Shown: piece by piece, positions 3,164-51,895 of the stretch
How positions within the stretch are numbered: the first letter of the stretch is position 1
How the letters are laid out: every line of letters begins with the position of its first letter
Program-made: the position numbers and the translations under genes
Source: Escherichia coli
GTDB lineage: Bacteria; Pseudomonadota; Gammaproteobacteria; Enterobacterales; Enterobacteriaceae
DNA: 64,000 bases
Direction: 5' to 3' (one strand)
NCBI RefSeq assembly: GCF_003334315.1
Contig: NZ_QOWR01000012.1
Notes under the pieces: model-generated
Database searches by the model: none
What the model was told of the DNA's origin: nothing
What the model saw: the letters and a program-made list of their open reading frames with translations, nothing else

Positions 3164-4132
<969 letters not shown>

Positions 4133-4293: not shown

Positions 4294-4334
4294 AAAGTGT
4301 GGATGGTAAAAATCTCATTTACACGCTAGTATCG

Positions 4335-4468
4335 GCATAACCACTAAACACTCTAGCCTCTGCACCTGGGTCAACTGATACGGTGCTTTGGCCGTGACAA
4401 TGCTCGTAAAGATTGCCACCAGGGCGAAGGAAGAAATGACTTCGCCTCCCGTATCTGGAAAGGTGTAC
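4335..4468 (+). promoter_or_regulatory. moaA 5' leader containing the molybdenum-cofactor (Moco) riboswitch; boundaries approximate
   Basis: Long structured leader immediately 5' of moaA ending in the RBS ggaaagg; placement from established knowledge of the moaA leader, structure not folded here. Confidence 0.5.
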
Positions 4469-5458: not shown

Positions 5459-5479
5459 AACGTCAAAAGGAGAGATCAG

Positions 5480-5992
5480 ATGAGTCAGGTAAGCACTGAA
5501 TTTATCCCGACCCGTATTGCTATTCTTACGGTTTCTAATCGTCGCGGTGAAGAAGACGATACCTCCGGTCACTATCTGCGCGATTCGGCGCAAGAAGCGG
5601 GCCATCACGTTGTCGATAAAGCCATTGTGAAAGAAAACCGCTACGCTATTCGCGCTCAGGTATCTGCGTGGATCGCCAGCGACGATGTACAAGTGGTATT
5701 GATTACGGGTGGTACTGGCCTGACGGAAGGTGATCAGGCTCCCGAAGCATTGCTGCCGTTGTTCGACCGTGAAGTTGAAGGTTTTGGTGAAGTGTTCCGG
5801 ATGTTGTCGTTTGAAGAGATTGGCACTTCCACGTTGCAATCTCGTGCGGTAGCGGGCGTCGCCAACAAAACGCTGATTTTCGCCATGCCGGGTTCGACCA
5901 AAGCGTGCCGTACCGCATGGGAAAATATCATCGCGCCGCAGCTGGATGCCCGTACGCGTCCGTGTAATTTCCATCCACATTTGAAGAAATAA
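5480..5992 (+). CDS. moaB: Molybdenum cofactor biosynthesis protein MoaB
   Basis: 170-aa ORF; MogA/MoaB fold; operon position. Confidence 0.95.
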
Positions 5993-5994
5993 GT

Positions 5995-6480
5995 ATGTCG
6001 CAACTGACCCATATCAACGCCGCTGGCGAAGCGCACATGGTGGATGTCTCCGCCAAAGCGGAAACCGTGCGTGAAGCGCGGGCGGAAGCCTTTGTCACCA
6101 TGCGCAGCGAGACGCTGGCGATGATTATTGATGGTCGCCACCACAAAGGCGACGTATTTGCCACTGCGCGTATTGCCGGTATTCAGGCGGCAAAACGCAC
6201 CTGGGATCTGATCCCGCTCTGTCATCCGCTGATGCTCAGCAAAGTTGAAGTCAATTTACAGGCCGAGCCGGAGCACAATCGGGTGCGTATAGAAACCTTA
6301 TGCCGCCTGACCGGGAAAACCGGTGTCGAAATGGAAGCATTAACCGCGGCCTCCGTGGCGGCGCTGACCATTTATGACATGTGCAAAGCGGTGCAAAAAG
6401 ATATGGTGATTGGTCCGGTACGTTTGCTGGCGAAGAGCGGCGGCAAGTCGGGTGACTTTAAGGTGGAAGCGGATGATTAA
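5995..6480 (+). CDS. moaC: Cyclic pyranopterin monophosphate synthase MoaC
   Basis: 161-aa ORF directly after moaB. Confidence 0.95.
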
Positions 6481-6718
6481 AGTTCTTTTTTTCGCCCAGG
6501 TGCGCGAGTTGGTGGGAACAGATGCAACCGAAGTGGCTGCGGATTTCCCAACTGTTGAAGCGTTACGCCAGCACATGGCTGCGCAGAGCGATCGCTGGGC
6601 GCTGGCGCTGGAAGATGGCAAATTACTGGCTGCCGTCAACCAGACGCTGGTGAGTTTTGACCATCCGCTGACTGACGGCGACGAAGTAGCTTTCTTCCCG
6701 CCGGTAACCGGAGGTTAA
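6473..6718 (+). CDS. moaD: Molybdopterin synthase sulfur-carrier subunit MoaD
   Basis: 81 aa, [12 protein letters not shown]... ending in GG; overlaps moaC by 8 nt. Confidence 0.93.
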
Positions 6719-6719
6719 G

Positions 6720-7172
6720 ATGGCAGAAACCAAAATTGTTGTTGGTCCGCAGCCGTTCAGCGTAGGAGAAGAGTACCCGTGGCTGGCGGAGCGTGACGAA
6801 GACGGTGCGGTAGTCACCTTTACTGGTAAGGTGCGCAACCATAACCTGGGCGACAGCGTCAACGCATTAACCCTCGAACACTATCCGGGGATGACTGAAA
6901 AAGCACTGGCAGAAATTGTTGATGAAGCGCGTAACCGCTGGCCGCTGGGGCGCGTCACGGTGATTCACCGCATCGGGGAATTATGGCCGGGCGATGAAAT
7001 CGTTTTTGTCGGTGTCACCAGTGCGCATCGCAGCAGTGCGTTTGAAGCCGGGCAGTTTATTATGGATTATCTCAAAACCCGCGCACCGTTCTGGAAGCGC
7101 GAAGCCACGCCGGAAGGCGACCGCTGGGTTGAAGCCCGGGAGAGCGATCAGCAGGCGGCAAAACGCTGGTAG
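6720..7172 (+). CDS. moaE: Molybdopterin synthase catalytic subunit MoaE
   Basis: 150-aa ORF, start 2 nt after the moaD stop. Confidence 0.95.
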   Translation: MAETKIVVGPQPFSVGEEYPWLAERDEDGAVVTFTGKVRNHNLGDSVNALTLEHYPGMTEKALAEIVDEARNRWPLGRVTVIHRIGELWPGDEIVFVGVTSAHRSSAFEAGQFIMDYLKTRAPFWKREATPEGDRWVEARESDQQAAKRW

Positions 7173-7307
7173 TTTTTGTTAGCCGGATAAGGCACCGCTG
7201 CGTCCGGCAATTTCACCGCTCAGTACATGCGTTTACGCTGCGTCGATGCACAGCCTCATCATTTTGCAGTATCCTTAAGATATTCCTTATATCTTCAGGA
7301 GATCGTC

Positions 7308-8012
7308 ATGGACAGATTCCCACGTTCTGATTCAATCGTACAACCCCGGGCTGGCTTGCAAACTTATATGGCGCAAGTCTATGGCTGGATGACCGTTGGC
7401 TTGTTGCTGACCGCATTTGTTGCCTGGTATGCGGCTAATTCCGCGGCCGTGATGGAGCTGTTGTTCACTAACCGTGTCTTTTTAATCGGTCTGATCATCG
7501 CGCAATTAGCATTGGTTATTGTGTTATCAGCGATGATTCAAAAGCTGAGCGCAGGTGTAACGACGATGCTCTTTATGCTTTATTCGGCGCTGACGGGTCT
7601 TACGCTTTCCAGTATATTCATTGTCTATACCGCTGCTTCTATCGCCAGTACTTTCGTCGTTACTGCCGGGATGTTCGGCGCAATGAGCCTGTACGGTTAC
7701 ACCACGAAGCGCGATTTAAGTGGCTTTGGCAATATGCTGTTTATGGCGTTAATCGGCATTGTGCTGGCATCGCTGGTCAACTTCTGGTTGAAAAGCGAAG
7801 CATTGATGTGGGCAGTTACCTACATCGGCGTGATTGTCTTTGTCGGATTGACGGCGTATGACACGCAGAAACTGAAAAATATGGGTGAGCAGATTGATAC
7901 CCGCGACACGTCGAACCTGCGCAAATATTCCATTCTTGGCGCGTTAACCTTGTATCTGGACTTCATCAACCTGTTCCTGATGTTGCTGCGAATTTTTGGC
8001 AACCGCCGTTAA
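7308..8012 (+). CDS. ybhL: BAX inhibitor-1 / YccA family inner-membrane protein YbhL
   Basis: ORF 7227-8012; likely start MDRFPRSDSIVQ (234 aa); seven hydrophobic segments. Confidence 0.88.
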   Translation: MDRFPRSDSIVQPRAGLQTYMAQVYGWMTVGLLLTAFVAWYAANSAAVMELLFTNRVFLIGLIIAQLALVIVLSAMIQKLSAGVTTMLFMLYSALTGLTLSSIFIVYTAASIASTFVVTAGMFGAMSLYGYTTKRDLSGFGNMLFMALIGIVLASLVNFWLKSEALMWAVTYIGVIVFVGLTAYDTQKLKNMGEQIDTRDTSNLRKYSILGALTLYLDFINLFLMLLRIFGNRR

Positions 8013-8031
8013 TTCTTTTTCACCATCAATA

Positions 8032-8059
8032 TCCCGGCCATGTGTCGGGATTTTTTTTC
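8032..8059 (+). terminator. Putative intrinsic terminator after ybhL
   Basis: Short GC stem (cccgg...tcggg) followed by a T8 run. Confidence 0.5.
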
Positions 8060-8216
8060 TTACTAAAAACGACACTTAACAAGTACCAGGTATAAAATAC
8101 GCCTTATGGCGAGCGGAAGCGTTTTCCGTATCCATAAATACAAAAGTATTTTGTATGCGTGGTTTTAAATTTATTGATGGTGAATATTAATATTTTTTCT
8201 AAGGACAACTAAAAGA

Positions 8217-8930
8217 ATGGAATCATACTCGCAAAACAGCAATAAATTAGATTTTCAGCACGAGGCCAGGATATTAAACGGTATATGGCTCATTACCGCT
8301 TTAGGTTTGGTGGCAACCGCAGGACTGGCCTGGGGAGCTAAGTATCTCGAAATTACGGCAACCAAATATGATTCACCACCAATGTATGTCGCCATAGGGT
8401 TATTATTACTTTGTATGTATGGCTTAAGTAAGGATATCAACAAGATAAATGCCGCCATCGCAGGCGTAATATATCTGTTTTTACTCTCTTTGGTGGCGAT
8501 TGTCGTTGCAAGTTTAGTTCCTGTATATGCCATTATCATCGTGTTCAGCACTGCGGGCGCGATGTTTTTAATCAGTATGCTGGCCGGTTTATTATTTAAT
8601 GTTGATCCTGGTTCTCACCGTTTTATCATTATGATGACGTTGACAGGGTTGGCCCTGGTAATCATCGTGAATGCGGCATTAATGAGTGAACGGCCCATTT
8701 GGGTAATAAGTTGCTTAATGATTGTGTTATGGTCAGGCATTATCTCGCATGGACGAAATAAGCTCCTTGAATTGGCGGGGAAATGCCATAGTGAAGAGTT
8801 GTGGAGTCCGGTTCGTTGCGCTTTTACAGGTGCATTAACACTCTATTACTATTTTATCGGCTTCTTTGGGATACTTGCCGCGATAGCTATAACGCTTGTC
8901 TGGCAAAGGCATACGCGTTTTTTTCATTAG
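8217..8930 (+). CDS. ybhM: Inner-membrane protein YbhM (BI-1-like)
   Basis: 237-aa polytopic membrane ORF adjacent to ybhL. Confidence 0.85.
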   Translation: MESYSQNSNKLDFQHEARILNGIWLITALGLVATAGLAWGAKYLEITATKYDSPPMYVAIGLLLLCMYGLSKDINKINAAIAGVIYLFLLSLVAIVVASLVPVYAIIIVFSTAGAMFLISMLAGLLFNVDPGSHRFIIMMTLTGLALVIIVNAALMSERPIWVISCLMIVLWSGIISHGRNKLLELAGKCHSEELWSPVRCAFTGALTLYYYFIGFFGILAAIAITLVWQRHTRFFH

Positions 8931-8965
8931 CCGTAAATGCACATACTAAAGAACTTAACTAAACT

Positions 8966-9922
8966 TCACATCGCCGCTTCATTTTTCGCCCGTAGCTTCT
9001 TCGCCTGGCTTTCCAGCAACAGGTAACAGATCAGCGCCAGCAGCAGTGGGATAAAGTAATACAGCACACGGTAAGCGAGTAGGGCGGCGATAATTGTACC
9101 TTTGGAGGTATGCTCCCCAGCCAGTAGTGCGATAAACACCGCTTCCAGCACACCGATCCCCGCCGGAATATGCACGATGACGCCAGCAATACTACTAACC
9201 AGTAACACGCCCAGTACAAAGAAATAGTTCACGCTTTGACCAAGTAACAGCCAGATAATCGCCCCCATTACCATCCAGTTAACGCTGGAAATCAGCATCT
9301 GAGCGAGGGCGAATTTCCATGAAGGCAGCACCAGCTTTTGCCCTTTGATGGTCATATGGCGGTGCTTCGCGAAAGCGCAAAACCACAAATAAACCGCGAT
9401 AATCATCAGTAAGCCAATGCCGAGAATACGCAGCGTAGTTTGATCGACATACCAGTGATCCGGCAACTCCACCACGCCTGCGGTAAAGATAATCCCTGCC
9501 AGTAAAATGTAGCCCAGCCAGTTGGTGGTAATACTGAGCGAGAAAATCCGCGTAATAGTGCTACCGGGCAACCCCAGACGAGAGTACAAACGATAGCGCA
9601 TACCAATGCCGCCGACCCAGGTACTGAGCGTCAGGTTGAAGGCGTAGCAGATAAACGACACCAGCATCACCTGGCGCTTCGCCAGTTTGTGACCGCAGTA
9701 AAAGCGGGCGAGCAGGTCATAGCAGCCGTAAATCAGATAGCTGACGACCACCAGCCCGACCGCACTAAGCAGCGCAACGCGATTGTAGTCGCGGATGACC
9801 TTCCAGACCTCTTCCCAGTCCACTTTTTTGGCGTAGACCACCAGCAACACAATCACCGCGATAAAAAACAGCCAGGTGAGGATCTTCTTTGCTAAGCGCC
9901 AGCGCGGGTGTGATTTACTCAT
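8966..9922 (-). CDS. ybhN: Inner-membrane protein YbhN (UPF0104, lysylphosphatidylglycerol-synthase TM-region-like)
   Basis: 318-aa membrane ORF; start of clsB-ybhN co-directional cluster. Confidence 0.88.
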   Translation of the reverse strand: MSKSHPRWRLAKKILTWLFFIAVIVLLVVYAKKVDWEEVWKVIRDYNRVALLSAVGLVVVSYLIYGCYDLLARFYCGHKLAKRQVMLVSFICYAFNLTLSTWVGGIGMRYRLYSRLGLPGSTITRIFSLSITTNWLGYILLAGIIFTAGVVELPDHWYVDQTTLRILGIGLLMIIAVYLWFCAFAKHRHMTIKGQKLVLPSWKFALAQMLISSVNWMVMGAIIWLLLGQSVNYFFVLGVLLVSSIAGVIVHIPAGIGVLEAVFIALLAGEHTSKGTIIAALLAYRVLYYFIPLLLALICYLLLESQAKKLRAKNEAAM

Positions 9923-11163
9923 CAGGGTTTTACCCCCGTGTTTTCAGTTTCTACCCGATCCTGCGTTTCCATTGTCGGTTGTGCGGGCGGATCAACCTGC
10001 GCCAGACGTGGCGTGTGTGCCGGAAGCCAGCCAACCAGCGCCGGGAAGTGGCGTAAAAAGTGGAACGCCAGCACGCTTTTGGTCAGGTTCCACCAGGTGC
10101 GTTTGGGCAGCATGGTTTCATCCACCTGCTGACAATCTGCGGCGATAATGCCGTTCAGATTATCGCGCAGCGTCTGGTTAAAATTACGATCGTGGATGAT
10201 GACATTTGCTTCGAGATTCAGTGACAAACTGAGCGGATCGAGATTACTGGACCCTACTGTCGCCCAGTGATCGTCCATCAATGCTACTTTGCCGTGGAGC
10301 GGGCGGCGGCGGTACTCAAACACCTGAACGCCGCCTTTAACCAGATAGTTATACAGCAAGCGCGCGCCGACTCTGACAATCGGCATATCCGGTTCGCCCT
10401 GAATGATCAGTTTGATCCGCACCCCGCGGCGTGCCGCTTTACGCAAGGCGTGTAAAAATCGATAGCCGGGGAAGAAGTAGGCGTTGGCGATAATGACTTC
10501 CCGCCGCGCCTGAGTGAGCATTTTCAGATAGTGGCGTTCTATATCATCGCGGTGTTCTTCGTTATCGCGCCAGACCAGCAATACCTGCGCTTCTCCCGGC
10601 TGGCGATTTTCTTCCGCTTTGTGATGACGTCGCCACCAGCGTCGTGCCGCGCTCTGTCCAGGCAGGTTTTCCAGCTCAAACTGGAGAATATCTTCGACAA
10701 TCGGCCCTTCAAGGCGTACCGCGTAATCCTGTTTAGCCTCTGGACCGTAGCTGGACATATGCTCGGCGGAGTAATTCAGCCCGCCAATAAAGGCGATACG
10801 CGCGTCGATCACCACAATTTTGCGATGCATCCGGCGAAACACATTGGTGCGCATACCAAAAAGGCGAGGGCGGGGATCGTAGTAGCGAAATACCACGCCA
10901 GCTGCCGTCAGTTCATTGACAAACTCATCGCTGAGATCCGGCGAACCGTAGCCATCCAGCAAGACTTCCGCTTTAACCCCGCGTTGCGCTGCTGCCAGTA
11001 GTGCCGCATGCAGCTGTTTGCCGACGTCATCCTCAAACCAGATAAACGTTTCAAGAATGATGCGTTCTTGTGCCTCGCCAATCGCCTTAAACACCGCGGG
11101 ATAATATTGCTCGCCGTTTTCCAGCAACTCGATCTTATTGCCTTCACGCCAGCTACATTTCAT
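9922..11163 (-). CDS. clsB: Cardiolipin synthase B (phospholipase D superfamily)
   Basis: 413 aa; two HxK(x)4D (HKD) motifs visible ([16 protein letters not shown]). Confidence 0.93.
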
Positions 11164-11921
11164 AAATGAATCTCCGCACTTAAAGGGGCATGATCAGAAA
11201 GGTGTCGCCATGTCTGCAGCGGCAACGCGGTTGGCGCGCTGGCGCTGGCATTTTTGACGTAGATCCTGTCCAGACGTAGTAGAGGAAATTGCACCGGAAA
11301 CGTGCGCGCCGGGCGTCCGTGGGCGCGGGTAAATATCTCATCCAGTCCGGCCTGCACTTTTAACGGATGATTAGCTTTTTGCCGCCAGTCATTGAAATCA
11401 CCCGCCACCAATACCGGTTCGCCGTCCGGTAGCTCATTCACCCATTCGGCGAGCATCGCAAGCTGCGCCTGACGGTGCGCCTCACGCAGGCCCAGATGTA
11501 CGCACATCACATGAATCGCTTTTCCGGTCATCGGCGGCACAATGCGGCAGTAGAGCACGCCGCGCTTTTCCGCACCATCGACCGAAACATCGCGATTCTC
11601 ATAATGTTCAATGGGATAACGCGACAGTACGGCGTTGCCGTGATGCCCTTCCGGGTATACGGCATTGCGACCGTAGGCAAAATCGCTCCACATGGTGTCG
11701 GCGAGAAACTCGTAGTGCGAGGTATCGGGCCAGTTTTCCACATGCAGCGGATGAACTTCGTGCGCGCCCATCACTTCCTGCAGGCAAACAATATCGGCGC
11801 TGACGGTACGCACGGCATCGCGAAGTTCCGGCAAAATGAAGCGTCGGTTAAACGCGGTAAAGCCTTTGTGAATGTTGATGGTGAGCACCTTGAACGAAAA
11901 TTGTTGTGTTTGATCGGGCAT
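11160..11921 (-). CDS. ybhP: Endonuclease/exonuclease/phosphatase family protein YbhP
   Basis: 253-aa ORF; 4-nt overlap with clsB. Confidence 0.88.
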
Positions 11922-12053
11922 AATTTTCCTGTCTTTGCCTCTTATCTCATTGAAATAGTGTAGTCGGCGTCACAAAAAGGTGCGGTCTTACGGAATTTTC
12001 CGTAAAGTTCGGTACTCTGAGTAAGTAGAGATAAATTCTTCAGGAGAGAAGCC

Positions 12054-12464
12054 ATGAAGTGGCAACAACGTGTTCGTGTCGCAACGGGTCTAAGTTGCTG
12101 GCAGATTATGTTGCATTTACTGGTAGTGGCGCTGCTGGTGGTGGGCTGGATGAGTAAGACTCTGGTTCACGTCGGCGTGGGATTATGCGCACTGTATTGT
12201 GTCACGGTAGTGATGATGCTGGTGTTTCAGCGCCACCCCGAGCAACGCTGGCGTGAGGTGGCAGACGTGCTGGAAGAGCTGACCACGACCTGGTATTTTG
12301 GCGCAGCGCTGATTGTGCTGTGGCTGTTGTCCCGCGTTCTGGAAAACAACTTTTTGCTGGCAATTGCAGGGCTGGCAATCCTTGCCGGCCCGGCGGTAGT
12401 GTCTTTGCTGGCGAAAGATAAGAAGTTACATCACCTTACGTCTAAACATCGCGTACGCCGCTGA
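12054..12464 (+). CDS. ybhQ: Inner-membrane protein YbhQ
   Basis: 136-aa hydrophobic ORF. Confidence 0.8.
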
Positions 12465-13532
12465 CCCTGTCGTGGCCGTTATCACCAGTAGCGGCCACAA
12501 ACTATTCCACACAATATCCAGACTCGCATCCTTCAAATAAATCTGCTTGGTAATGTCCGTAAAGTGGCGAATAGGGTTAATCCACGTCAGGTTTTGCAGC
12601 CAAACTGGCATGTTTTCCACCGGCGAAACGTAACCGGAAAGGAGAATGGCGGGCATCATAAAGACAAACACGCCGATAAACGCCTGCTGTTGTGTCGAGC
12701 AGAGTGATGAAATCAACAGACCGAATCCCACCAGCGATAAACCGTAAATCACCATCGTAAAGTAGAACAGCGCCAGCGATCCGGCGAAGGGGATTTGATA
12801 CGCCCAGATACCAATCGCCAGCACAATGGTGGCCTGGAAGGTGGCGACAATTAACGCCGGTACGGCTTTGCCGATGAAGATCTGCCAGGTGGTGAGCGGC
12901 GAAACCAGTAGCTGATCGAGCGTACCTTGTTCACGTTCGCGGGCGACGGAAAGTGAAGTGACGATCATTACGCCGATAGTGGTGATCATGGCGATCAGCG
13001 ACGGCACCACAAACCATTTGTAGTCGAGATTCGGGTTATACCAGTTGCGTACTACCAGCTCGCTGTTGTTAGGTTTCGGTTTTCCTTCCAGCAGCTCCTG
13101 CTGATAATTTTTGACGATCTGTTGCAGGTAGTTGGCGGCAATCTGCGCACTGTTGGAGTTACGCCCGTCGAGGATCAACTGCAAAGGCGCGGTCTGGAAG
13201 GTATCCAGTTTGCGCGAGAAGTCAGCCGGGAAACGCACCAGTAGTAACGCCTTTTGTGTGTCGATGGTTGGGCGGATCTCCTGTGGGCTTTTCAGCAGCA
13301 GCACATGAGTAAAGGCGCTGGCGCGGGCAAAACGTTGGGTCAGCTCCACCGAATGCTCGCCGTTATCTTCATCGTAGATGGCGATGGTGGCGTTAGTCAC
13401 TTCCAGCGTGGCGGCGAACGGGAACAGGATCACCTGAATTAGCACGGGTAAAATCAGAATCGCGCGGGTTTGTGGTTCGCGCAGCAACGACTGCAACTCT
13501 TTGCGGATTAACGTCCATAAGCGATGAAACAT
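12426..13532 (-). CDS. ybhR: ABC-2 family exporter permease YbhR
   Basis: 368-aa membrane ORF. Confidence 0.9.
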
Positions 13533-13542
13533 GCTCTTCTCC

Positions 13543-14668
13543 CTAATCCAGCCGACGTTTGGTTTTCAGCCACGTCAGGCCGATAAACATCACCGCCGAA
13601 GCGATCAAAAACAGCACGTTTACCACCAGCACCACTGGAATATTCCCGGCGAGGAACAGGCTTTGCAGGGTGCTGACGAAATAACGAGCGGGAATAATGT
13701 ACGTCACCGCGCGGATCACCGCGGGCATACTGTCGATCTGAAAAATAAAGCCGGAAAGCATAATCGACGGCAGAAAAGCCGCGTTCAGAGCGACCTGAGC
13801 GGCATTGAACTGGTTGCGGGTTATCGTGGAAATCAGCAGCCCCATCCCCAGGGTACTGAGTAAAAACAGGCTGGAGATAAAAAACAGAATCAGCAGCGAC
13901 CCGCGATACGGCACGCCGAGAATAAACACTGACACCAGCATACACAGCAACATCGCCAGCATCCCGAGAAAGTAATAAGGGATCAGCTTACACAGCAGCA
14001 GTTCCGTGCGGGTAATCTCCGTAGAGAGCAGAGCCTCCATGGTGCCGCGTTCCCATTCTCGCGCCACCACCAGCGAGGTGAGAATCGCGCCGATGACCGT
14101 CATGATGATGGTCACCGCACCCGGGATAATAAAGTGCTGGCTTATCGCCGCCGGGTTAAACCAGTAGCGGGTTTGTACATCAATAAGCGGTTCAAAAGTC
14201 TGCCCGTTGTCCTCCGCTCGCTGCATTTGCCAGATCTGCCAGATCCCTTCGACATACCCCTGCACAAAGTTAGCGGTATTCGGCTCACTGCCGTCGGTGA
14301 TCACCTGAATCGGTGCGGTGGCGTTGGCGCGCTCCATCTGTTCCGCAAAATCCACCGGAATAACCACCAGACCGCGAATTTTCCCCGCCTGCATTTTGGC
14401 GATCAGTTCCTGACGGTTATCGCTGATGGTGGCGTCGATGTAGGGCGAACCGGTCATGGTGTGGGTGAAATCCAGCGCCGCTTCGCTACGCTGTTCCAGT
14501 AAAATCCCGACCCGCAGCTTGCTGGAGTCGAGGTTAATGCCGTAACCAAAAATAAACAGCAGTAGCAGCGGGATCACTACCGCAATCAGCCAGCTACTCG
14601 GATCGCGAACGATCTGCCGCGTCTCTTTAACGCACAGCGCCCGTACGCGACGCCAGGACAGGATCGGG

Positions 14669-14676
<8 letters not shown>
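13543..14676 (-). CDS. ybhS: ABC-2 family exporter permease YbhS
   Basis: 377-aa membrane ORF, paralogous to YbhR. Confidence 0.9.
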
Positions 14677-18067
<3,391 letters not shown>

Positions 18068-32903: not shown

Positions 32904-33053
32904 GACTCCTCCAGTGAGAAAATAGAGCAAAAAGATAAGTATAGATGCTGGAGGAGGGGCGATTTTAAATGAGAGGAATCTGGTGTGCCTCCCTTTCGGG
33001 TGAAAGGGAGGAAGGGATATTAAGCAGGTTGCTGACAACGTGCGGGCTTTTTT

Positions 33054-38403: not shown

Positions 38404-38436
38404 AAAAAATCCGCCTCTCGGGGCGGATTTTTGTTT
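38404..38436. terminator. Bidirectional intrinsic terminator between ompX and opgE
   Basis: aaaaaATCCGCCtctcgGGGCGGATttttgttttt; GC stem flanked by A and T runs. Confidence 0.8.
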
Positions 38437-40020
38437 TTAAGGTTTCGGGTCGAAAATATCGGTTCCGAGATGGTTGTAATCCACCTTCTGTAACTGGAAG
38501 TTGGTGATGTATATCGGCCCGGCTTTCTTCTCAGATATAAACGGGTATTTGATGTTAATTTCCTTCGCTTTAATCCCCGTCCACTGGGAGAAAAAGCCTA
38601 AGAAGTCATTGGCTGAGCGGCGGGCTTTAATCACACGATGCGCTTTATCGTCGCTGGAAATGACCATAAAAGGCACCTGGAAATTTTGCTGATATTTATC
38701 ATCATGGGCAAGGTATTGCACGTCTTTACCGCGCTCTTTAAAGGCCAGACCGTGGTCAGAAAAGTAAACCAGCGAGAAGCTGCTGCCGCTGTTGCGTAAC
38801 TGATCGTACAGCTTGCGCAGTAAATCGTCCGTTTGCGTCATGGTATAGAGATAGCACGACGTTTCTTTCGATTGCACAAAGGTTTCGTATTTTCCTTGTG
38901 TCCTGTCGCAGGCCTGCGGATGTGAGCCCATCAGATGTAGAACAATCAGCTGCGGTTGCGAGTGCTCTTGCGCCAGCACTTGAGCGGTCATATCCAGTAA
39001 CGCTTCGTCTTTGGTGTTTTTATCTGCTTCAAAATTACCTTCTTTCAGGAAGTACACTTCATCTGCTCGTTTGGCGATGCTGGCGATAGCGGTATCGTAT
39101 TCGCCGATTTGACCCTGGTTGGAAAACCACCAGGTCTGGAAGCCCGCGCGATTTGCCAGGGTGACAAAGTTATCCTGAAACTGTGGTTTGCCATCGACAA
39201 CGCGATTGAGCGTTAAGCCAAGCGATTTCTGCGTGGAGCCACTGGCGGCAATGTAGTCAGCAAATATCAAACCGTTAACGCTGCTGGCAAACGGGGTATT
39301 GTCCCAGTGACCGCCAAAGGCACCGAGGGCATCGCGACGCGCGCTTTCACCGATCACCACCACATAGGTCTGATACTTCGGCTTAACGGCAGTGACCGTC
39401 CAGGTATCTTTCATTCCGGAAAGTTTTGCCATCCGTTCTTGCTCTTCAATCACCTCGTTATTATTGACGATGACATCCTTAGCAAAACGAAATACCGGAT
39501 AGCCAGTATCTTTCAGTTTAAATACGCCACCCCAGGCCAGGTTTTGCACGGGAGCAACAAAAAATGTCGCCACACTGAATACCAGACACAGGCTGTCGAA
39601 GGTATTCCAGCGCGCTTTTTCATTCTCTTTTTTTCGCCTGATTGCTATTACGCCGAGCGCAAAAATAAATAAGCCGACCAGGTAGCTGTACCACGGAAAA
39701 ATCGTCAGGATTTCGGTCGACTCTTCCATATTGGTGGAGTGCAATGCCAGCAATGTATTGAAATTAGGCGCGCCGTAGGCCTGAGCAAAAGGGAAATAAC
39801 AAGCCGCCACCAGCGAACTGACACCGACCAGAACTTTTTGTACGCGAGGCAATGTTCGCCATAGCAAAAGCAAAATAGCCGTAAACGCAGCGGTGTAGAG
39901 CAAACTGAAGGGGTAACCTAAGCCGAGGTTAATTAATAGCGACTGTAAAAAGTAGAACGCAGTCCACGGGCTAAATACCCGGCTACGGGTAACAAGCGAT
40001 TCTTTGAGGGTTAAATTCAT
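38437..40020 (-). CDS. opgE: Phosphoethanolamine transferase OpgE (YbiP)
   Basis: 527 aa; N-terminal TM region and sulfatase-like domain. Confidence 0.9.
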   Translation of the reverse strand: MNLTLKESLVTRSRVFSPWTAFYFLQSLLINLGLGYPFSLLYTAAFTAILLLLWRTLPRVQKVLVGVSSLVAACYFPFAQAYGAPNFNTLLALHSTNMEESTEILTIFPWYSYLVGLFIFALGVIAIRRKKENEKARWNTFDSLCLVFSVATFFVAPVQNLAWGGVFKLKDTGYPVFRFAKDVIVNNNEVIEEQERMAKLSGMKDTWTVTAVKPKYQTYVVVIGESARRDALGAFGGHWDNTPFASSVNGLIFADYIAASGSTQKSLGLTLNRVVDGKPQFQDNFVTLANRAGFQTWWFSNQGQIGEYDTAIASIAKRADEVYFLKEGNFEADKNTKDEALLDMTAQVLAQEHSQPQLIVLHLMGSHPQACDRTQGKYETFVQSKETSCYLYTMTQTDDLLRKLYDQLRNSGSSFSLVYFSDHGLAFKERGKDVQYLAHDDKYQQNFQVPFMVISSDDKAHRVIKARRSANDFLGFFSQWTGIKAKEINIKYPFISEKKAGPIYITNFQLQKVDYNHLGTDIFDPKP

Positions 40021-44978: not shown

Positions 44979-45038
44979 GTGATTATCCGTCACCCCGATA
45001 CTGTCGGGGTGACGGCGGCTGATGACAAATGCAAAATA

Positions 45039-45144
45039 GCCTGATGCGCTAGGCTTATCAGGCCTACGCAGTACCTGCAATATATTGAATCTGCAGGACT
45101 TTGTAGGCCGGATAAGGCGTTAACGCCGCATCAGGCATTAACAA
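45039..45144. repeat. REP/BIME cluster downstream of ybiT
   Basis: gcctgatgcgctaggcttatcaggcctac ... gtaggccggataaggcgttaacgccgcatcaggca. Confidence 0.85.
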
Positions 45145-45218: not shown

Positions 45219-46484
45219 TCAAACATCCATGCCCAACGCTCGCTTACCGTGAATGTTGAGGTCGGCAAGCGTAAAGCGTCCTTCCCAGTTTGTTTCATAG
45301 TCCTCGCGCGGGAAGTCGCCCGGCGATGCGCCTTTTTCCAGTGCGGCCTTCACCTTGTGCGCGTAGGCAAGATTTTTCTCGCACATCGGTGCCGCAGGAA
45401 TGTACATCACGTTGCCCCAACCTTGTTGATTTTCAACGGGGGCAACGGAATGGATGACGTCGCAGTGCCACCAGACGGAGTCTCCGGCTTCGAGTTTTGG
45501 AATGCTGGTTAACGCCTCAATCAACAGTGGATGCCATTGCTCTGATACCGGCAATACTCTTCCGGGCGCTACGCCGCACAGTTCATCCTCCGGCACATCA
45601 TCAAGCAGCGGACGTAACAGTACGTACGCCATAGCTTCAGGAATGGGCACGACGTGCAGCAGCCCCTGACAAGGCAGCATATCAGAGAGCGCTGTCCAGC
45701 CCTGGAATGTCCGAAACACGGAACATTTGGTGGTGTTGTCCACCGTGTACTCTTCAACTTCCGTACGATGTGCCGCATGCCAGGGATCATATTGCGCCAG
45801 ATTGCCATTAAAGACGTTGACGAAAACGCGCTGATACGCTGGAAGCAGCCAGCGTTCCAGTGCCCCGGAGTCGGTATGCGCTCCAAGACCTTTGGAGGTC
45901 GTTCCGGGCGGACGGCGGCGGATACGGTCAGGGTAGATGACGCTCACATCCGGGTTAAACCATTGCTTTCCATCACTTTCAAATGTCCACAGACGATTGA
46001 GAAACGACTGCGCATTCGCCATTTCTTCACTCTGGCGGGCCTGCATTTGCGCCTGCGACCAGTAGATGGGGTAAATCTCGGGACGTGAAGCGCTGAGCGT
46101 CCCGAAGAAATTATCGCCGGGGCCTTTGTAGACCTCGTCAAAGCGGTTGCGGTCCAGATAGTCCAGCATCGACTGATCCCAGCCTAGCGCTTGTTCGCGG
46201 GGGAAATGGCCTTTTATCACCGCACAACCGCGACGTTTAATCTGTTCGCGCTGCTCTGCAGTAACATGACCTGCTTTGATATCGGCATAAGACAGCACCG
46301 GCCAGACGGCATCGCCCTGTGCTTTGAGTGCGTTGATTTCAGCCACTCGCGTGGCAATGTCATCGCTTAGCTGATTAAAGATCTGCTGGACGTCGCCAAG
46401 CTGCGCCCGCAGCGCGTGCTTCATCTGACGGATAGCTGCTTTGTGATCGGCAGGCAATGTGTCGCTGGTAAAAGTAGAAGCCAT
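45219..46484 (-). CDS. ybiU: DUF1479 family protein YbiU
   Basis: Start MASTFTSDTLPADHK (421 aa). Confidence 0.88.
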   Translation of the reverse strand: MASTFTSDTLPADHKAAIRQMKHALRAQLGDVQQIFNQLSDDIATRVAEINALKAQGDAVWPVLSYADIKAGHVTAEQREQIKRRGCAVIKGHFPREQALGWDQSMLDYLDRNRFDEVYKGPGDNFFGTLSASRPEIYPIYWSQAQMQARQSEEMANAQSFLNRLWTFESDGKQWFNPDVSVIYPDRIRRRPPGTTSKGLGAHTDSGALERWLLPAYQRVFVNVFNGNLAQYDPWHAAHRTEVEEYTVDNTTKCSVFRTFQGWTALSDMLPCQGLLHVVPIPEAMAYVLLRPLLDDVPEDELCGVAPGRVLPVSEQWHPLLIEALTSIPKLEAGDSVWWHCDVIHSVAPVENQQGWGNVMYIPAAPMCEKNLAYAHKVKAALEKGASPGDFPREDYETNWEGRFTLADLNIHGKRALGMDV

Positions 46485-46499
46485 AACCACCTCTCATTA

Positions 46500-46513
46500 A
46501 CTTTCATTCGAAA
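46500..46513 (-). promoter_or_regulatory. Copy A of the 14-bp motif TTTCGAATGAAAGT, 16 nt upstream of the ybiU ATG
   Basis: Plus strand actttcattcgaaa is the reverse complement of TTTCGAATGAAAGT; followed on the ybiU strand by SD gagaggtgg. Confidence 0.6.
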
Positions 46514-46635
46514 CCATTCTGATTTGCATGTGACAATATAAGTTATAAATAAGTTAATGCAAGTTTAATGATTTGATGTGATGTACAGGATGTAAAAAGA
46601 AGGGAAAACCGGAGCGCACGGCTCCGGTAGAGAGG

Positions 46636-47451
46636 TCAGCTGTTAAAAGGGGATGTGTTATCCAGCACCGCCTGAATCACATTCAGCGCGCCTTCATGAT
46701 TATTATCATCGGTAGCGTAACGGGCGATTTGTTTAATGTTTTCCGCAGCATTGCCCATCGCAAAGGAATAACGCGCCATTTTCAGCATCTCCGCATCGTT
46801 ACCGCTGTCGCCAATCGCTACCACATTTTGCGGTGACAGATCCCAGCGTTTCAGTAACCGCGAAATACCGTTTGCTTTATGTAGACCGGGAATAATCAGG
46901 TCGATAAAGCCAAAACCACTGGTGACGGGTTTCATAATGCCATCGAGCGCTAGGTGCAGTTTGTCGATCACTAACGGGATTTGTTCATCCGGCAGGTTGA
47001 GCGAAAACTTGAACAGTACGTCGTCAATCTCCTGATAATCTTTTACAGGTTTCAGGCGATGGTAGTGTTTTGCCATCAGTGCGACAAATGCTTCGGGGGC
47101 ATTTTCGCTGACATATGCACTTTGCAGACCGCAGGCGACAAAATTGAGTTGCTTATCTTTTAGCAACTCGCCAATAACAATCCGCGATTCATGTCGGGTC
47201 AGTTCGCCGTGGAACAGTTGCTTGCCATGTTCGTAAACCAGCGCGCCGTTTTCCGCGACAAAAGAGATCTCATCTTTTAGCTCAGGAAAGAACGAAATAA
47301 GCTGGTAATACTGATTACCGCTGGCGACAACGAACTCAATGCCGCGCTTTTTCAGTTCCTGATATTGCGCCATAAAACGTGGTTGGTTGTACGTTTTGGC
47401 GTCGTTAAGAAAAGTACCGTCCATGTCTGTGACGATAACTTTTACGCTCAT
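46636..47451 (-). CDS. ybiV: HAD-family sugar phosphatase YbiV
   Basis: 271 aa; N-terminal DxDGT (VTDMDGTFL) motif. Confidence 0.9.
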
Positions 47452-47521
47452 AGATGTGCTCCTGGCTCGAAAATGAAACCGTAACAGTGTAATAACAATG
47501 TGACACAGAGCACAAATTATA

Positions 47522-47535
47522 TTTCGAATGAAAGT
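47522..47535 (+). promoter_or_regulatory. Copy B of the 14-bp motif TTTCGAATGAAAGT, in the ybiW-ybiV intergenic region
   Basis: Exact 14-mer; about 70 nt upstream of the ybiV start; a CRP-like TGTGAcacagaGCACA lies at 47499-47514. Confidence 0.6.
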
Positions 47536-47596
47536 AGGGGTGGAATTGATGATGTGAATGATTTGGCCCGGCGACGCCGCCGCCGGGCCGAGGAGA

Positions 47597-50029
47597 TTAC
47601 AGCATATGTTCAGTACGGGCGATGATATCGTCCTGAGCGTCTGGAGAGAGCGCGGTGAAGAAGGCGGAATAGCCCGCGACGCGCACTACCAGATCGCGAT
47701 ACTGATCGGGATGTTTTTTCGCCTCCAGCAGCGTCTCGCGGGAAACGATGTTGTACTGAATATGCCAGCCTTTATGCACTTCAAAGAAGGTACGCAGCAG
47801 GATCATCAGTTTCTGCTTGTCAGATTCGTTCTCCAGCGTTGCCGGATTCAGTTTCTGGTTGAGCAACACGCCGCCGAGAATCGCTGCCGTAGGCAGTTTA
47901 CCCACTGAGCCAATGACCGCAGTAGGGCCAAGATGGTCAGTACCGGAAGCCGGACTTGCGCCTTCTGCCAGCGGGGTGTGGGCTTTACGCCCGTCCGGTG
48001 TTGCCATAGTCTGCGCGCCAAACGGTACGTTAGCGGAGATAGACGACGTACCCGCGTAATAGTTGCCGCCAACCGGACCACGACCATAGCGTGGGTTATG
48101 GTACTGTTTCAGTTCGTCGATATAGGTCTGATAAGCGCGAGCCAGCAGCGTATCGACGGTATCATCGTCGTTGCCGTACTTCGGCGCACCGTTAATCAGC
48201 CGCTGACGCAGTTGCTCATGAGTCAGGCCATCGAAGTCATCCGCCAGTGCGGCAGCCAGCTGTTGCTGACCAATCGCACCCTGTTCAAACACCAGTTTCT
48301 TCACTGCCGCCAGGCTGTTGCCGAGGTTGGCAATGCCAACCTGCAGGCCAGAAACCCAGTCATATTTCGCGCCGCCTTGCTTGATACTTTTCGCTCGCTC
48401 AATACAGTCATCCACCAGCGCCGAGCAGAGAATATCGTGTACGTTCTCTTCCAGCATGGTGTCGACGACATATTCGATTTCGATTGATTTACGCGTGTAA
48501 TAACGGATTTGCGTATCCCACGCGTCCATTACTTCATCGAAATTGTTAAAGTTGCCTGCCGACAACGCTTTTTCTTGTGGCAGGAACACTTTGCCGCTGG
48601 TGGCATCACGCCCGCCTTCCAGCGCCGCCAGCATCACGCGGGCGAAGTTGATAAAGCTCATGCCGGTACAGCGATAGCCCCATTTGCCACCGACGGCGGT
48701 TTCGATACAACCAATCGCTGCGTAGTCGTAAGCGTCCTGCGGTTCAATACCGAGTTTAATAAATTCCGGGATCACGATTTCGTCGTTGTTGAACGCCGGC
48801 ATCCCGAAGCCGCAACGGATCACCTGTACGCAGGCGTCGAGGAAATCATTACTCATTCCTGCATGGTAACGCACGCTGAGGTTAGGCTGAGTGGAACGCA
48901 GGCGACCGCAGGATTCGAGGATCGCGTAAGAGAGGGGATTCACTGCATCCATTGGTTGACCATCAACCAGATTTTGTCCGCCAATGGTAACGTTCTGATA
49001 CAGCGGACTTCCCGCAGAGGCTTTTGAGTGTGAGCCGGAGCGGATCTTGTTCACTTCCAGCAGTTTCAGCCAGCAGCTATGCAGCATCTCGATGGCGTGT
49101 TCGCGATCCAGCGTCTGGTTGAGTTCAACGTCGCGGCGATAGTACGGGTAGAGATACTGGTCCATACGACCAAACGATACCGAGTGACCGTTAGATTCGA
49201 TCTGCAAAATCAATTGGATGAAGTAACACAGTTGCAGCGCCTGCCAGAAAGTCTGCGGCGGCTGGTGGGCGATAAGATCGCAGTTTTCTGCCATCGTCAG
49301 CAGTTCATCGCGACGGCTTTCGCGAGTTTCGGTAGCAGCCATTTCACGCGCCAGGGCAGCGAAACGTTCAATGTGTTCACTGACTGCCACCAGCACGATA
49401 TCAATCGCTTTCAGGAATTGTTCGCCATGTAAATCTTCCAGCACCGTCAGATTGATGCGCGAGCGACGTTCCGCTACTTTCTCACGCAGACCATCAAGAC
49501 CTTTTTCCAGCAGCAGCGGGAAATTCACCGCCAGGTGCGCATCGCCGGAGGTCATATTGCCTTCCGCTTTAATGATTCCGGTCGCCAGCAGACCTTTTTG
49601 CTCATCGGTAAACATGCCGTAGCAGCGATCCTGTACGGTCTGACCGCGCCACCACGGGCACACTTCATGCAGAACGCGTTTGTTCTCTTCGCTCACCGCA
49701 AAGCCAGCACCGGGACGATCTGCCAGATCATCAATCTCTTTTTCGATCCACGAGACAGTATATTCCGGGAAGATCGGCGCGGCGCGAACTTCGCTTGCCT
49801 GGTTGCCAATGATCAACTCATCGTGTTTGATCCAGATGGTGCGATTCGCCAGGTGATGCGCCAGTGCCAGCGCGCGACGTACCGGGATCGGCTTATCGAG
49901 ATGTTGTTGATACATCTCGGTATAGTGCTGCGCGCGCTCGGTACAGACTGGCGGTTTCACAATATGCACCAGCGCATTTTTGTGCGCTTTAATGCGGTCG
50001 CTGAGCGTGTCCAGTTTCAGTGTGGTCAT
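47597..50029 (-). CDS. ybiW: Glycyl-radical enzyme (pyruvate formate-lyase-like) YbiW
   Basis: 810 aa; C-terminal glycyl-radical signature RVAGYSAFF. Confidence 0.92.
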
Positions 50030-50034
50030 GGTTG

Positions 50035-50934
50035 TTATCCTCGTAAGGTCGCGGTTAACCCTTTCTGGCAGGCATACTGCTGGGCAAAGTCGAGCAGTTC
50101 TGGCGCATCAAGCGGTTTTTCCGGGGCGTCATAGGGCAGATTAAGTAAGTGATATTTGTTGATGCCCAGCGTGTGGTAGGGCAGAAAATGAATTTCGCCA
50201 ACGTGCAGCTCGTCGGCGGCAAAATCGGTAATGGCTTTTACAGAGGTTTCGTCGGCATTAAAGCCCTGAATCAGCGGCACGCGGATAATGATTTTTTTGC
50301 CCGCTGCGGCGAGTTTTTTCAGGTTATCCAGCACTCTGGCGGCGTTACCGTCGGTCCACTGTTTAAACGGCGCGTCGGCAACGTGTTTTAAATCGGCAAG
50401 AAACAGATCGATATAGGGCAGAGAAGGGGCGATATATTTCCACGGCACATGCAGACAGGTTTCTACCGCAGTATGAATGCCTGCCTCGTGGCTGGCTTGC
50501 AGTAGCGCCATCGCCATTTCCGGCTGCATAAAGGGCTCACCACCCGAAAGCGTTAAACCGCCGCCGCTGCGATCGTAAAACGGTTTATCGCGCAGAACGG
50601 TCGTCATGATCTCCTCAACGCTTTTCACTTCACCACACACGGTTAATGCCTGTGTCGGACAGCAGTCGGTTAACGCCGTCAGATGCTCCGGGGTTAACTT
50701 TTCCCGATGAATAAGCAAACCATTCAGCGCGCGCTCAATCACTTCCGACGCGGCCTTAGCGCACAGCTCGCAGCCTTCCAGACACAGTCGTGCGTCATAC
50801 AGCAGATCCTGCGTGCGGGCGCGGCTTTCCGGGTTCTGACACCAGCGGCAGCCCAGCGAACAGCCTTTAAGAAATACGACCGTGCGGATACCGGGGCCAT
50901 CATGGGTCGAGTAGCGCTGAATATTGAAAATCAT
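50035..50934 (-). CDS. ybiY: Glycyl-radical enzyme activating protein YbiY (radical SAM)
   Basis: CxxxCxxC (CSLGCRWC) near the N-terminus; start taken at [10 protein letters not shown] (299 aa); the ORF extends to 50961 if the upstream ATG is used. Confidence 0.88.
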
Positions 50935-50969
50935 AGTTGCCTCTCTGTTTCGTTCAAACATTAAAATAC

Positions 50970-50983
50970 TTTCGAATGAAAGT
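50970..50983 (+). promoter_or_regulatory. Copy C of the 14-bp motif TTTCGAATGAAAGT, in the ybiY-fsaA divergent region
   Basis: Exact 14-mer; here it is a perfect palindrome in context (ACTTTCgaatGAAAGT). Confidence 0.6.
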
Positions 50984-50987
50984 TAGA

Positions 50988-51001
50988 TTGATGTGCGTCA
51001 A
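50988..51001. promoter_or_regulatory. FNR-like box (TTGATgtgcGTCAA) in the ybiY-fsaA intergenic region
   Basis: One mismatch to TTGAT-N4-ATCAA; centred about 41 bp upstream of a plausible ybiY transcription start. Confidence 0.45.
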
Positions 51002-51064
51002 CTGTTCAGAGAGTTTTCCCGTGATAGTCTACATTCAGACAAAAAGTACATTTTGAGGATGGTT

Positions 51065-51727
51065 ATGGAACTGTATCTGGATACTTCAGACGTTGTTGCG
51101 GTGAAGGCGCTGTCACGTATTTTTCCGCTGGCGGGTGTGACCACTAACCCAAGCATTATCGCCGCGGGTAAAAAACCGCTGGATGTTGTGCTTCCGCAAC
51201 TTCATGAAGCGATGGGCGGTCAGGGGCGTCTGTTTGCCCAGGTAATGGCTACCACTGCTGAAGGGATGGTGAATGACGCACGTAAATTGCGTTCTATTAT
51301 TGCGGATATCGTGGTGAAAGTTCCGGTGACCGCCGAGGGGCTGGCAGCTATTAAGATGTTAAAAGCGGAAGGGATTCCAACGCTGGGAACCGCGGTATAT
51401 GGCGCAGCACAAGGGCTGCTGTCGGCGCTGGCAGGTGCGGAATATGTTGCGCCTTACGTTAATCGTATTGATGCTCAGGGCGGTAGCGGCATTCAGACTG
51501 TGACCGACTTACACCAGTTATTGAAAATGCATGCGCCGCAGGCGAAAGTGCTGGCAGCGAGTTTCAAAACCCCGCGTCAGGCGCTGGACTGCTTACTGGC
51601 AGGATGTGAATCAATTACGCTGCCACTGGATGTGGCACAACAGATGATTAGCTATCCGGCGGTGGAAGCCGCTGTGGCGAAGTTTGAACAGGACTGGCTG
51701 GGAGCGTTTGGCAGAACGTCGATTTAA
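51065..51727 (+). CDS. fsaA: Fructose-6-phosphate aldolase 1 (FsaA)
   Basis: Start [20 protein letters not shown] (220 aa); transaldolase-like fold. Confidence 0.92.
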
Positions 51728-51812
51728 CCGGACGTTCTGCATCCTCATAAATTGCTGATGACGTGGCGGAGTGCACCGATGCCTGCCGCGCTTGGAAATC
51801 TGTGCCCGAACC

Positions 51813-51895
51813 GTAGGCCAGATAAGGCGTTCACGCCGCATCTGGCGTCTGGAGCAAATGCCTGATGCGACGCTTGTCGCGTCTTATCAGGCCTG
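51813..51895. repeat. REP/BIME cluster downstream of fsaA
   Basis: gtaggccagataaggcgttcacgccgcatctggc ... gcctgatgcgacgcttgtcgcgtcttatcaggcc. Confidence 0.8.

Follow-up and report, generated by a model that had tools for sequence, protein, structure and literature searches.

The ybiU-ybiV-ybiW-ybiY-fsaA segment of Escherichia coli as a probable YciT regulon for 1,5-anhydroglucitol-6-phosphate catabolism

Positions 45219-51727 of a 64,000-nucleotide stretch of Escherichia coli DNA (contig NZ_QOWR01000012.1 of assembly GCF_003334315.1; the whole stretch is called the window below) carry ybiU, ybiV, ybiW and ybiY on the minus strand and the divergently transcribed fsaA on the plus strand. We consider it probable that this segment represents the YciT regulon of E. 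coli, and that it holds a catabolic pathway for 1,5-anhydroglucitol-6-phosphate (AG6P) regulated as in the following model. 1,5-anhydroglucitol would be imported and phosphorylated by the phosphotransferase system (PTS), and YbiW, once activated by YbiY, would open the ring of AG6P. FsaA would then split the resulting 1-deoxyfructose-6-phosphate, and GldA would reduce the released hydroxyacetone to 1,2-propanediol. YciT would repress all five genes through operators located at three promoters. An FNR-dependent branch consisting of ybiYW and fsaA would catabolise AG6P anaerobically, with ybiU and ybiV as FNR-independent members of the regulon.

The main elements of this picture are already in print, namely FNR binding in 2013, the regulator and the idea of a five-gene pathway in 2021, the substrate of YbiW in 2024 and the anaerobic activity of ybiYW in a 2025 preprint. 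An earlier interpretation of the same DNA, made from its letters alone (the sequence-only reading), had described the five genes as a single poorly characterised anaerobic sugar-phosphate module. That interpretation is partly supported, in that it was largely right but had a core that was already published. Its view that the substrate of YbiW is not firmly established has been overtaken by the 2024 assignment, by the structures 8ID7 and 8YJN, and by the publication in 2021 of the five-gene pathway with its regulator. What our analysis adds is that these four sources are tied to exact bases, with a palindromic YciT operator assigned to each promoter and an FNR box placed for both divergent promoters. 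It also establishes that the operator is conserved at three promoters across ~75 species, and that yciT adjoins ybiW in Buttiauxella, Serratia and other genera.

Genes of the segment and the shared YciT operator

The segment is E. coli chromosomal DNA with 100% identity to several complete genomes, and part of it was found in all of the complete E. coli genomes searched (5426/5426). Its genes are as follows.

45219-46484, minus strand: ybiU, a Gig2-like/DUF1479 protein with a PhyH-type Fe(II)/2-oxoglutarate dioxygenase fold
46636-47451, minus strand: ybiV (supH), a Cof-type HAD-IIB sugar phosphatase (TIGR00099)
47597-50029, minus strand: ybiW, a glycyl-radical enzyme, published as the 1,5-anhydroglucitol-6-phosphate ring-opening lyase
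50035-50934, minus strand: ybiY, the radical-SAM (S-adenosylmethionine) activase of YbiW (TIGR02494)
51065-51727, plus strand: fsaA, fructose-6-phosphate aldolase (NF009296)

The gene content, order and coordinates agree with what had been proposed, and family models and motifs bear out the families. YbiW scores 1409 bits against TIGR01774 (cut-off 678), and its residues 1-810 match the full-length "YbiW" of Protein Data Bank (PDB) entries 8ID7/8YJN with 1855 bits. As a PFL2-type enzyme it carries the glycyl-radical motif RVAGY at 783-787, which fits the pattern RVxG[FWY], and a catalytic cysteine loop, GCIE at 440-443, of the GCxE form found in the eliminase/lyase subgroup. YbiY scores 370 bits against TIGR02494 (cut-off 174) and has the CX3CX2C motif CSLGCRWC at residues 25-32; ybiY lies upstream of ybiW in one operon, with a gap of 5 nucleotides (nt) between them. 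YbiV, which is identical to PDB 1RLM/2HF2, reaches 221 bits against TIGR00099 (cut-off 137) and presents the DxDxT nucleophile motif as DMDGT at residue 9. FsaA exceeds the cut-offs of both NF009296 (451 bits versus 306) and TIGR00875 (280 bits versus 246), and YbiU matches Pfam PF07350 (Gig2-like, formerly DUF1479) with E=2.7e-153.

The 14-bp motif that had been described as shared by these genes is present as three exact copies of TTTCGAATGAAAGT, at 46500-46513 on the minus strand and at 47522-47535 and 50970-50983 on the plus strand, one in each intergenic promoter region. A search of the rest of the window with up to 2 mismatches found no further copy. Together with its flanks the motif forms a 16-bp palindrome, ACTTTC-N4-GAAAGT, and the three resulting operators are listed here without a strand.

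46500-46515: operator A, ACTTTCATTCGAAACC on the plus strand, containing the exact 14-mer, 16 nt upstream of the ybiU start codon
47520-47535: operator B, TATTTCGAATGAAAGT on the plus strand, containing the exact 14-mer and abutting a TATAAT hexamer on the ybiV strand
50968-50983: operator C, ACTTTCGAATGAAAGT, a palindrome with perfect arms between the FNR box and the ybiY -10 hexamer

The placement of the operator differs among the promoters. At ybiYW it is flanked by the FNR site and the -10 hexamer, at ybiV it adjoins a -10 hexamer, and at ybiU it is downstream of the promoter, at ~+13 to +28 of the predicted start and before the ribosome-binding site. To follow these sites among relatives, we used a comparison set of 80 loci, each from a different enterobacterial species with a YbiW that is 85-99% identical, in which the neighbouring genes were mapped. 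The operator core is found upstream of ybiY with at most 1 mismatch in 75/80 species and upstream of ybiV in 53/53, while the core CTTTC-N4-GAAA is found upstream of ybiU, again with at most 1 mismatch, in 49/51. In the ybiV operator the central 4 nt vary, being ATTC in 21 species, GAAT in 22 and ATAT in 7, and a centre that flips from ATTC to GAAT inside constant arms points to a symmetric site for a dimer.

The regulator was described by Gao et al. 2021 (PMC8464067), who reported chromatin immunoprecipitation-exonuclease (ChIP-exo) peaks of the DeoR-family protein YciT at ybiY and ybiV, ranking 2nd and 4th of 49, and who explicitly proposed an uncharacterised pathway made up of these five genes. 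In their yciT deletion all five were derepressed, with log2 fold changes of +7.7 for ybiY, +7.0 for ybiU, +3.5 for ybiW, +2.2 for ybiV and +1.8 for fsaA (PMC8464067). YciT was also enriched on ybiY promoter DNA by DNA-affinity mass spectrometry in a 2025 Reg-Seq preprint. When the published peak coordinates are converted from U00096.2 to NC_000913.3, seven other YciT ChIP-exo peaks (ybiO, ompX, pdeR, yfcV, sixA, rdcA and yjiT) fall exactly on TTTC-N4/5-GAAA palindromes. Judged from the bases themselves, YciT thus appears to recognise the 16-bp palindrome ACTTTC-N4-GAAAGT, with one copy at each of the three promoters.

A shared 14-mer could in principle be a chance occurrence, or sequence from a repeat element, with no regulatory role. 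Apart from the fact that the FNR pattern by itself is not enriched in the window, we found nothing in favour of such an origin. In shuffles of the window TTTCGAATGAAAGT had a mean of 0.01 matches and 0/100 shuffles contained three exact copies, the operator positions are kept across ~75 species, and the motif coincides with the YciT binding data. Taken together, the shuffles, the cross-species conservation and the binding data led us to reject a chance origin with near certainty.

Several observations weigh against assigning the operators to YciT in this manner. Two strong YciT peaks map to 46655-46688 at the 3' end of ybiV and to 51073-51100 over the first codons of fsaA, at distances of 90-175 bp from copies A and C; the DNA beneath them contains nothing operator-like, and operator B has no ChIP-exo peak in the published list. 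The offset between peak and motif at the ybi locus is also noted in the Reg-Seq preprint, according to which RegulonDB lists YciT as an activator. In addition, YciT was associated with osmotic stress by Gao et al. 2021 (PMC8464067).

This last point allows for an explanation, put forward by Gao et al., in which YciT would chiefly regulate the response to osmotic stress and the ybi genes would belong to an osmolarity response instead of a carbon-source pathway. The yciT deletion did grow worse in 0.5 M NaCl with sorbitol (PMC8464067), the gene adjoins osmB in E. coli, and a weak YciT peak lies on a matching palindrome at the mechanosensitive-channel gene ybiO. However, the strongest transcriptional effects of the deletion fall on these five genes, yciT is found directly beside ybiW in several genera, the Reg-Seq authors were unable to confirm osmotic regulation, and the function of the enzymes is catabolic. 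An osmotic role as the main one is therefore quite improbable, and we favour YciT as the repressor of a carbon-source pathway.

Gene order in other species provides independent genomic support for YciT as a dedicated regulator of the pathway. A YciT homologue is located directly beside ybiW or fsaA in 15 loci among the 80 species compared, including Buttiauxella, Serratia, Atlantibacter, Brenneria, Pantoea, Rouxiella, Prodigiosinella and others. The Buttiauxella regulator scores 491.6 bits against the curated NCBI model of YciT (cut-off 450), and its gene has the yciH-pyrF-lapB-lapA neighbourhood of E. coli yciT. In Rouxiella aceris (3074-17107 of the fetched locus) a single cluster holds two YciT-like regulators, YbiU, FsaA and YbiY-YbiW together with a ROK-family kinase, a GldA-type dehydrogenase, a GluP/FucP-type major facilitator superfamily (MFS) transporter and PtsG, with ybiU lying between a yciT homologue and fsaA.

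YciT resembles other DeoR-family repressors (GlpR, AgaR, SrlR, UlaR and DeoR), among which AgaR, GlpR and SrlR are its next-best NCBIfam matches, in that its targets are catabolic genes, repressed from palindromic operators that overlap their promoters. It is unlike them in that E. coli yciT lies ~480 kb from its main targets, where it adjoins osmB, and in that no operator was found at yciT itself. A search covering E. coli yciT and the frw-pflDC/ptsA-fsaB-gldA cluster (36 kb) detected no operator near a promoter there, and the single good match that it gave, upstream of pdeR, coincides with a YciT ChIP-exo peak. Effectors of DeoR-family regulators are typically phosphorylated sugars, and by analogy with them the inducer of YciT would be a sugar phosphate, most likely AG6P.

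Two further YciT peaks lie inside the window. Upstream of ybiO, at 32989-33010, there is a perfect hairpin-palindrome, CCTCCCTTTC-GGGT-GAAAGGGAGG, with the operator core CTTTC-N4-GAAAG exactly under the weak YciT ChIP-exo peak (signal-to-noise ratio, S/N, 2.7). After the ompX terminator, at 38436-38463, the sequence GGTTTCGGGTCGAAAAT (TTTC...GAAA with a 5-nt spacer) coincides with a YciT ChIP-exo peak of S/N 14.9.

The FNR site and the promoters of the segment

An FNR-like box had been noted beside the copy of the motif that is nearest to ybiY. This box is TTGATGTGCGTCAA at 50988-51001, is covered by a published FNR peak and is kept across genera. The elements that it would serve are listed below, together with the promoter of ybiU; starts and hexamers are predictions made from sequence conservation and spacing.

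50988-51001, no strand: FNR site, TTGATGTGCGTCAA, 4 nt from operator C and at ~-41.5 from the predicted starts of both ybiY and fsaA
50960-50965, minus strand: predicted ybiYW -10 hexamer TTTAAT, with a predicted transcription start site (TSS) near 50953
51023-51028, plus strand: predicted fsaA -10 hexamer GATAGT, 21 nt from the FNR box
46535-46562, minus strand: predicted sigma-70 promoter of ybiU, with -35 TTGCAT at 46557-46562, a 16-nt spacer and -10 TATATT at 46535-46540

The box fits TTGAT-N4-ATCAA at 9/10 positions. As a bare pattern it is unremarkable, since the window holds 6 FNR-like matches with at most 1 mismatch versus 2.6 expected. Its arrangement with the operator is highly conserved, and a block consisting of TTGAY-N4-RTCAA, 4 nt and ACTTTC[AT]TTCGAAAGT is present upstream of ybiY in 71/80 species, in most of which [ATC]ATTTAAT follows the operator. 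Among these 71 species the N4 spacer of the FNR box takes 31 different sequences with the arms fixed. If TTTAAT is taken as the -10 hexamer of ybiYW, then the FNR site is centred at -41.5 and the operator falls between the box and the -10 hexamer. On the opposite side, the -10 position of fsaA in Atlantibacter, Buttiauxella and Serratia reads TATACT, TATGAT or TATTAT at a fixed 21 nt from the box. Spacing to the conserved hexamers, with starts predicted from the bases, fits a class II FNR site at -41.5 on both sides, and because -10-like hexamers lie at fitting spacing on either side, a single FNR dimer appears to be placed for both divergent promoters, which are ~84 bp apart. Seen from fsaA, the operator would then precede the promoter, in keeping with the smaller derepression of this gene in the yciT deletion.

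Binding at this site is documented in the study of Myers et al. 2013 (PMC3688515), where an FNR ChIP peak is assigned to "ybiY/fsaA" with a predicted site that is exactly TTGATGTGCGTCAA. The Reg-Seq preprint of 2025 reports that the ybiYW promoter is active only anaerobically, with an anaerobically active TSS, and that an "unidentified activator" binds ~15 nt upstream of the YciT site. This activator is probably FNR bound at TTGATGTGCGTCAA. Our literature search found no paper whose main text mentions ybiY together with FNR. FNR activates the paralogous ptsA-fsaB-gldA operon (Myers et al. 2013, PMC3688515).

Two points count against FNR activation in this arrangement. The ybiY/fsaA peak of Myers et al. 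2013 (PMC3688515) was not accompanied by an FNR-dependent change of expression in glucose medium, a result that fits repression by YciT yet provides no positive evidence of activation by FNR. Furthermore, the Reg-Seq preprint places YciT at ~-5 and the activator at ~-20, as compared with ~-22 and -41.5 from the start predicted here. The arrangement is like that of known class II FNR promoters coupled to a substrate-specific repressor in having a near-consensus site at ~-41.5 that is bound in vivo and a promoter that stays silent without a second condition. It is unlike them in that one FNR site apparently serves two divergent promoters, and FNR-dependent activation is putative here. With a single FNR site at ~-41.5 of both divergent starts, full expression of the oxygen-sensitive branch should need both anaerobiosis and relief from YciT.

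The ybiU promoter is of a different kind. Its block, AACTTGCATTAACTT..TAACTTA[TA]A[GT]T, is kept across genera and has no FNR box. The region 46535-46580 also contains three AACTT repeats spaced ~11 bp apart (AACTTGCATTAACTTATTTATAACTTA on the gene strand) that are kept across genera and may constitute a further protein-binding site. A second documented FNR site of the window, ATGATGTATATCAA at 4206-4219, is listed by Myers et al. (PMC3688515) for ybhK/moaA.

Whether the segment can be called one anaerobic, oxygen-sensitive module depends on which genes are meant. The five genes do form one regulon, with a common operator and joint derepression in the yciT deletion, and the ybiYW/fsaA promoter pair, which alone carries the FNR box, is in keeping with an oxygen-sensitive pathway. 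In contrast, ybiU has its own promoter without an FNR box and is expressed at a higher level aerobically. As YbiU also has the fold of an oxygen-dependent dioxygenase and is missing from 20% of E. coli, the description of a single anaerobic module is only partly right.

The anhydroglucitol pathway and the roles of YbiU and YbiV

1,5-anhydroglucitol, a dietary sugar analogue, is used clinically as a marker of glycaemia, and its 6-phosphate has toxic effects on human neutrophils. The glycyl radical of YbiW is installed by the radical-SAM activase YbiY. FsaA and FsaB reportedly split 1-deoxyfructose-6-phosphate into glyceraldehyde-3-phosphate and hydroxyacetone, and GldA is said to reduce hydroxyacetone to 1,2-propanediol.

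According to Ma et al. (JACS 2024), as cited in PMC12441222, YbiW cleaves AG6P to 1-deoxyfructose-6-phosphate. PMC12441222 also states that anhydroglucitol and anhydromannitol are phosphorylated by the PTS, that their 6-phosphates are cleaved to 1-deoxyfructose-6-phosphate by YbiW and PflD, and that this cleavage supports growth of E. coli on anhydroglucitol. PDB entries exist for both YbiW (8ID7 and 8YJN) and PflD (8YJO). Fructose-6-phosphate aldolase (FSA) can use hydroxyacetone as a donor; as late as 2020 the physiological role of the enzyme was described as enigmatic (PMC7767278). The reported FsaA step agrees with this donor activity. The sequence-only reading had anticipated a phosphorylated sugar or polyol as substrate, with anhydro-sugars as candidates, and a dehydratase or lyase whose product is taken by FsaA. 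Both expectations agree with a ring-opening lyase that acts on AG6P, a phosphorylated anhydro-polyol (PMC12441222), and with the donor specificity of FSA (PMC7767278).

The core of the segment is the same system as the "anhydroglycolysis" pathway of Ma et al. (J Am Chem Soc 2024, 146:26187), which comprises YbiW/YbiY with FsaA as well as the paralogous PflD/PflC with FsaB, GldA and the Frw PTS. The paralogous frw-pflDC/ptsA-fsaB-gldA cluster has its own transporter and gldA but no YciT-type operator, whereas the ybi cluster carries ybiV and ybiU. A literature search found no role assignment and no biochemical data for YbiU or YbiV in this pathway, which is a point against including them.

YbiU shows a double-stranded beta-helix fold with a metal triad in which H203 is invariant and D205, H340 and H345 are present in at least 90% of 15 diverse homologues. 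Arginines R150, R191 and R240 are invariant among these homologues and are candidates for the basic residue that binds 2-oxoglutarate. In a profile search with the family, the only matches below the family itself were PhyH-type Fe(II)/2-oxoglutarate dioxygenases, at a marginal level (best E=7.6e-4). We infer from these features that YbiU is an oxygen-dependent Fe(II)/2-oxoglutarate oxygenase. It differs from PhyH-type dioxygenases (PhyH, EctD, AsqJ and the sugar-acting EvdO1, HygX and KanJ) and from Candida albicans Gig2 by a long N-terminal helical extension, and its sequence similarity to characterised dioxygenases is marginal. In Table S12 of Myers et al. 2013 (PMC3688515), the ratios of which we oriented by the values for cyo and dms, the level of ybiU is raised 4.1-fold under aerobic conditions and that of yciT ~2-fold under anaerobic ones.

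A narrower pathway is a possibility that we take seriously although we doubt it. In it only ybiY-ybiW and fsaA act together, while ybiV and ybiU share the repressor but act elsewhere, YbiV as a general phosphatase for relief from sugar phosphates and YbiU as an oxygenase for another sugar. The distribution of the genes speaks for this possibility and against the inclusion of ybiU and ybiV. Among complete E. coli genomes ybiU is present in 4331/5426 and missing in 1095 (20%), it is also missing from E. albertii and E. whittamii, and in Buttiauxella, Serratia, Yersinia and other genera the core has neither ybiV nor ybiU beside it, so that neither gene is its constant companion. The gene is also dimorphic, since 242 E. 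coli genomes carry an allele that is 60-80% identical in DNA, and at the protein level the YbiU of the E. coli genome that represents the species in the collection is 82% identical. Likewise NCBIfam has no function model for YbiU, our literature search found no substrate for any DUF1479/Gig2-like protein, and distant DUF1479 homologues occur in mixed neighbourhoods. Six of these were inspected, with two found in sugar ABC-transporter/dehydrogenase clusters, one beside a GH38 mannosidase and three in uninformative surroundings, which is too mixed for a substrate to be assigned from them. However, the operator is kept at ybiV and ybiU in nearly every species that has them, ybiU is among the two most strongly derepressed genes in the yciT deletion, Rouxiella ybiU lies inside a cluster with a kinase, a transporter and gldA, and a dedicated local repressor rarely controls unrelated enzymes. 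We therefore continue to regard ybiU and ybiV as members of the AG6P regulon.

How these two members might act can be proposed only tentatively. YbiU and YbiV would handle the same or a related phosphorylated anhydro-sugar when oxygen stops YbiW. As described in PMC12441222, AG6P is a dead-end analogue of glucose-6-phosphate that is removed in humans by a phosphatase. By analogy with human G6PC3/G6PT, which repair AG6P in this manner, YbiV, as a sugar phosphatase within an AG6P regulon, could play the same role and relieve AG6P accumulation. The human enzyme belongs to an unrelated family, and action of YbiV on AG6P is putative.

A more specific proposal, which we think has a rather small chance of being right, is that the YciT regulon is an oxygen-adaptive two-branch system for toxic dead-end AG6P. 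Without oxygen, YbiW and FsaA would be switched on by FNR and degrade it; with oxygen, YbiU would hydroxylate AG6P at C1, and YbiV would remove the excess by dephosphorylation. Since C1 adjoins the ring oxygen, hydroxylation there gives a hemiacetal, and the product of YbiU would be glucose-6-phosphate. If such a two-branch system does exist, then it would provide the first substrate for DUF1479/Gig2-like proteins as well as an aerobic route for 1,5-anhydroglucitol in E. coli, which is of moderate interest given the use of this compound as a glycaemia marker and the neutrophil toxicity. The roles of YbiU and YbiV constitute a clean, testable remaining lead of moderate interest.

Other sites and neighbourhoods

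Two further elements flank ybiV.

47499-47514, no strand: CRP-like palindrome TGTGA-N6-GCACA between operator B and the ybiV start, a prediction
46608-46628, minus strand: predicted intrinsic terminator after ybiV, the stem-loop ACCGGAGCCGTGCGCTCCGGT followed by a T-rich tail

The CRP-like site reads TGTGA-CACAGA-GCACA, agrees with the consensus at 9/10 positions and is kept across genera with a variable N6. Control of ybiV by CRP was nevertheless not adopted as its explanation, since its spacing to both candidate -10 hexamers is unusual for activation. The terminator would form the boundary between the transcription units of ybiV and ybiU.

Neighbouring genes vary among relatives. In Enterobacter asburiae (11254-16298 of the fetched locus) the interval from ybiU to ybiT is occupied by genes for a LacI-family regulator, an MFS transporter and a GH31 glycosidase, and in some E. 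coli a LacI-family gene abuts ybiU. The best scores of the Enterobacter GH31 protein are to models of alpha-glucosidase or alpha-xylosidase, whose cut-offs it does not reach. Family GH31 also includes glucan lyases that make anhydrofructose. In Yersinia alsatica, Y. proxima and Y. artesiana (~5300-10433 of the fetched loci) ybiY-ybiW is directly beside sgrR, which encodes a sugar-phosphate stress regulator; these loci have no fsaA, FNR box or YciT operator, and an Rfam search of the gap gave no match to SgrS RNA. In the window, REP-like palindromic units (e.g. GCCTGATGCG...CTTATCAGGCCTAC) are found at ~45030-45140 in the ybiT-ybiU gap and at 51810-51895 in the fsaA-moeB gap, and thereby bracket the module.

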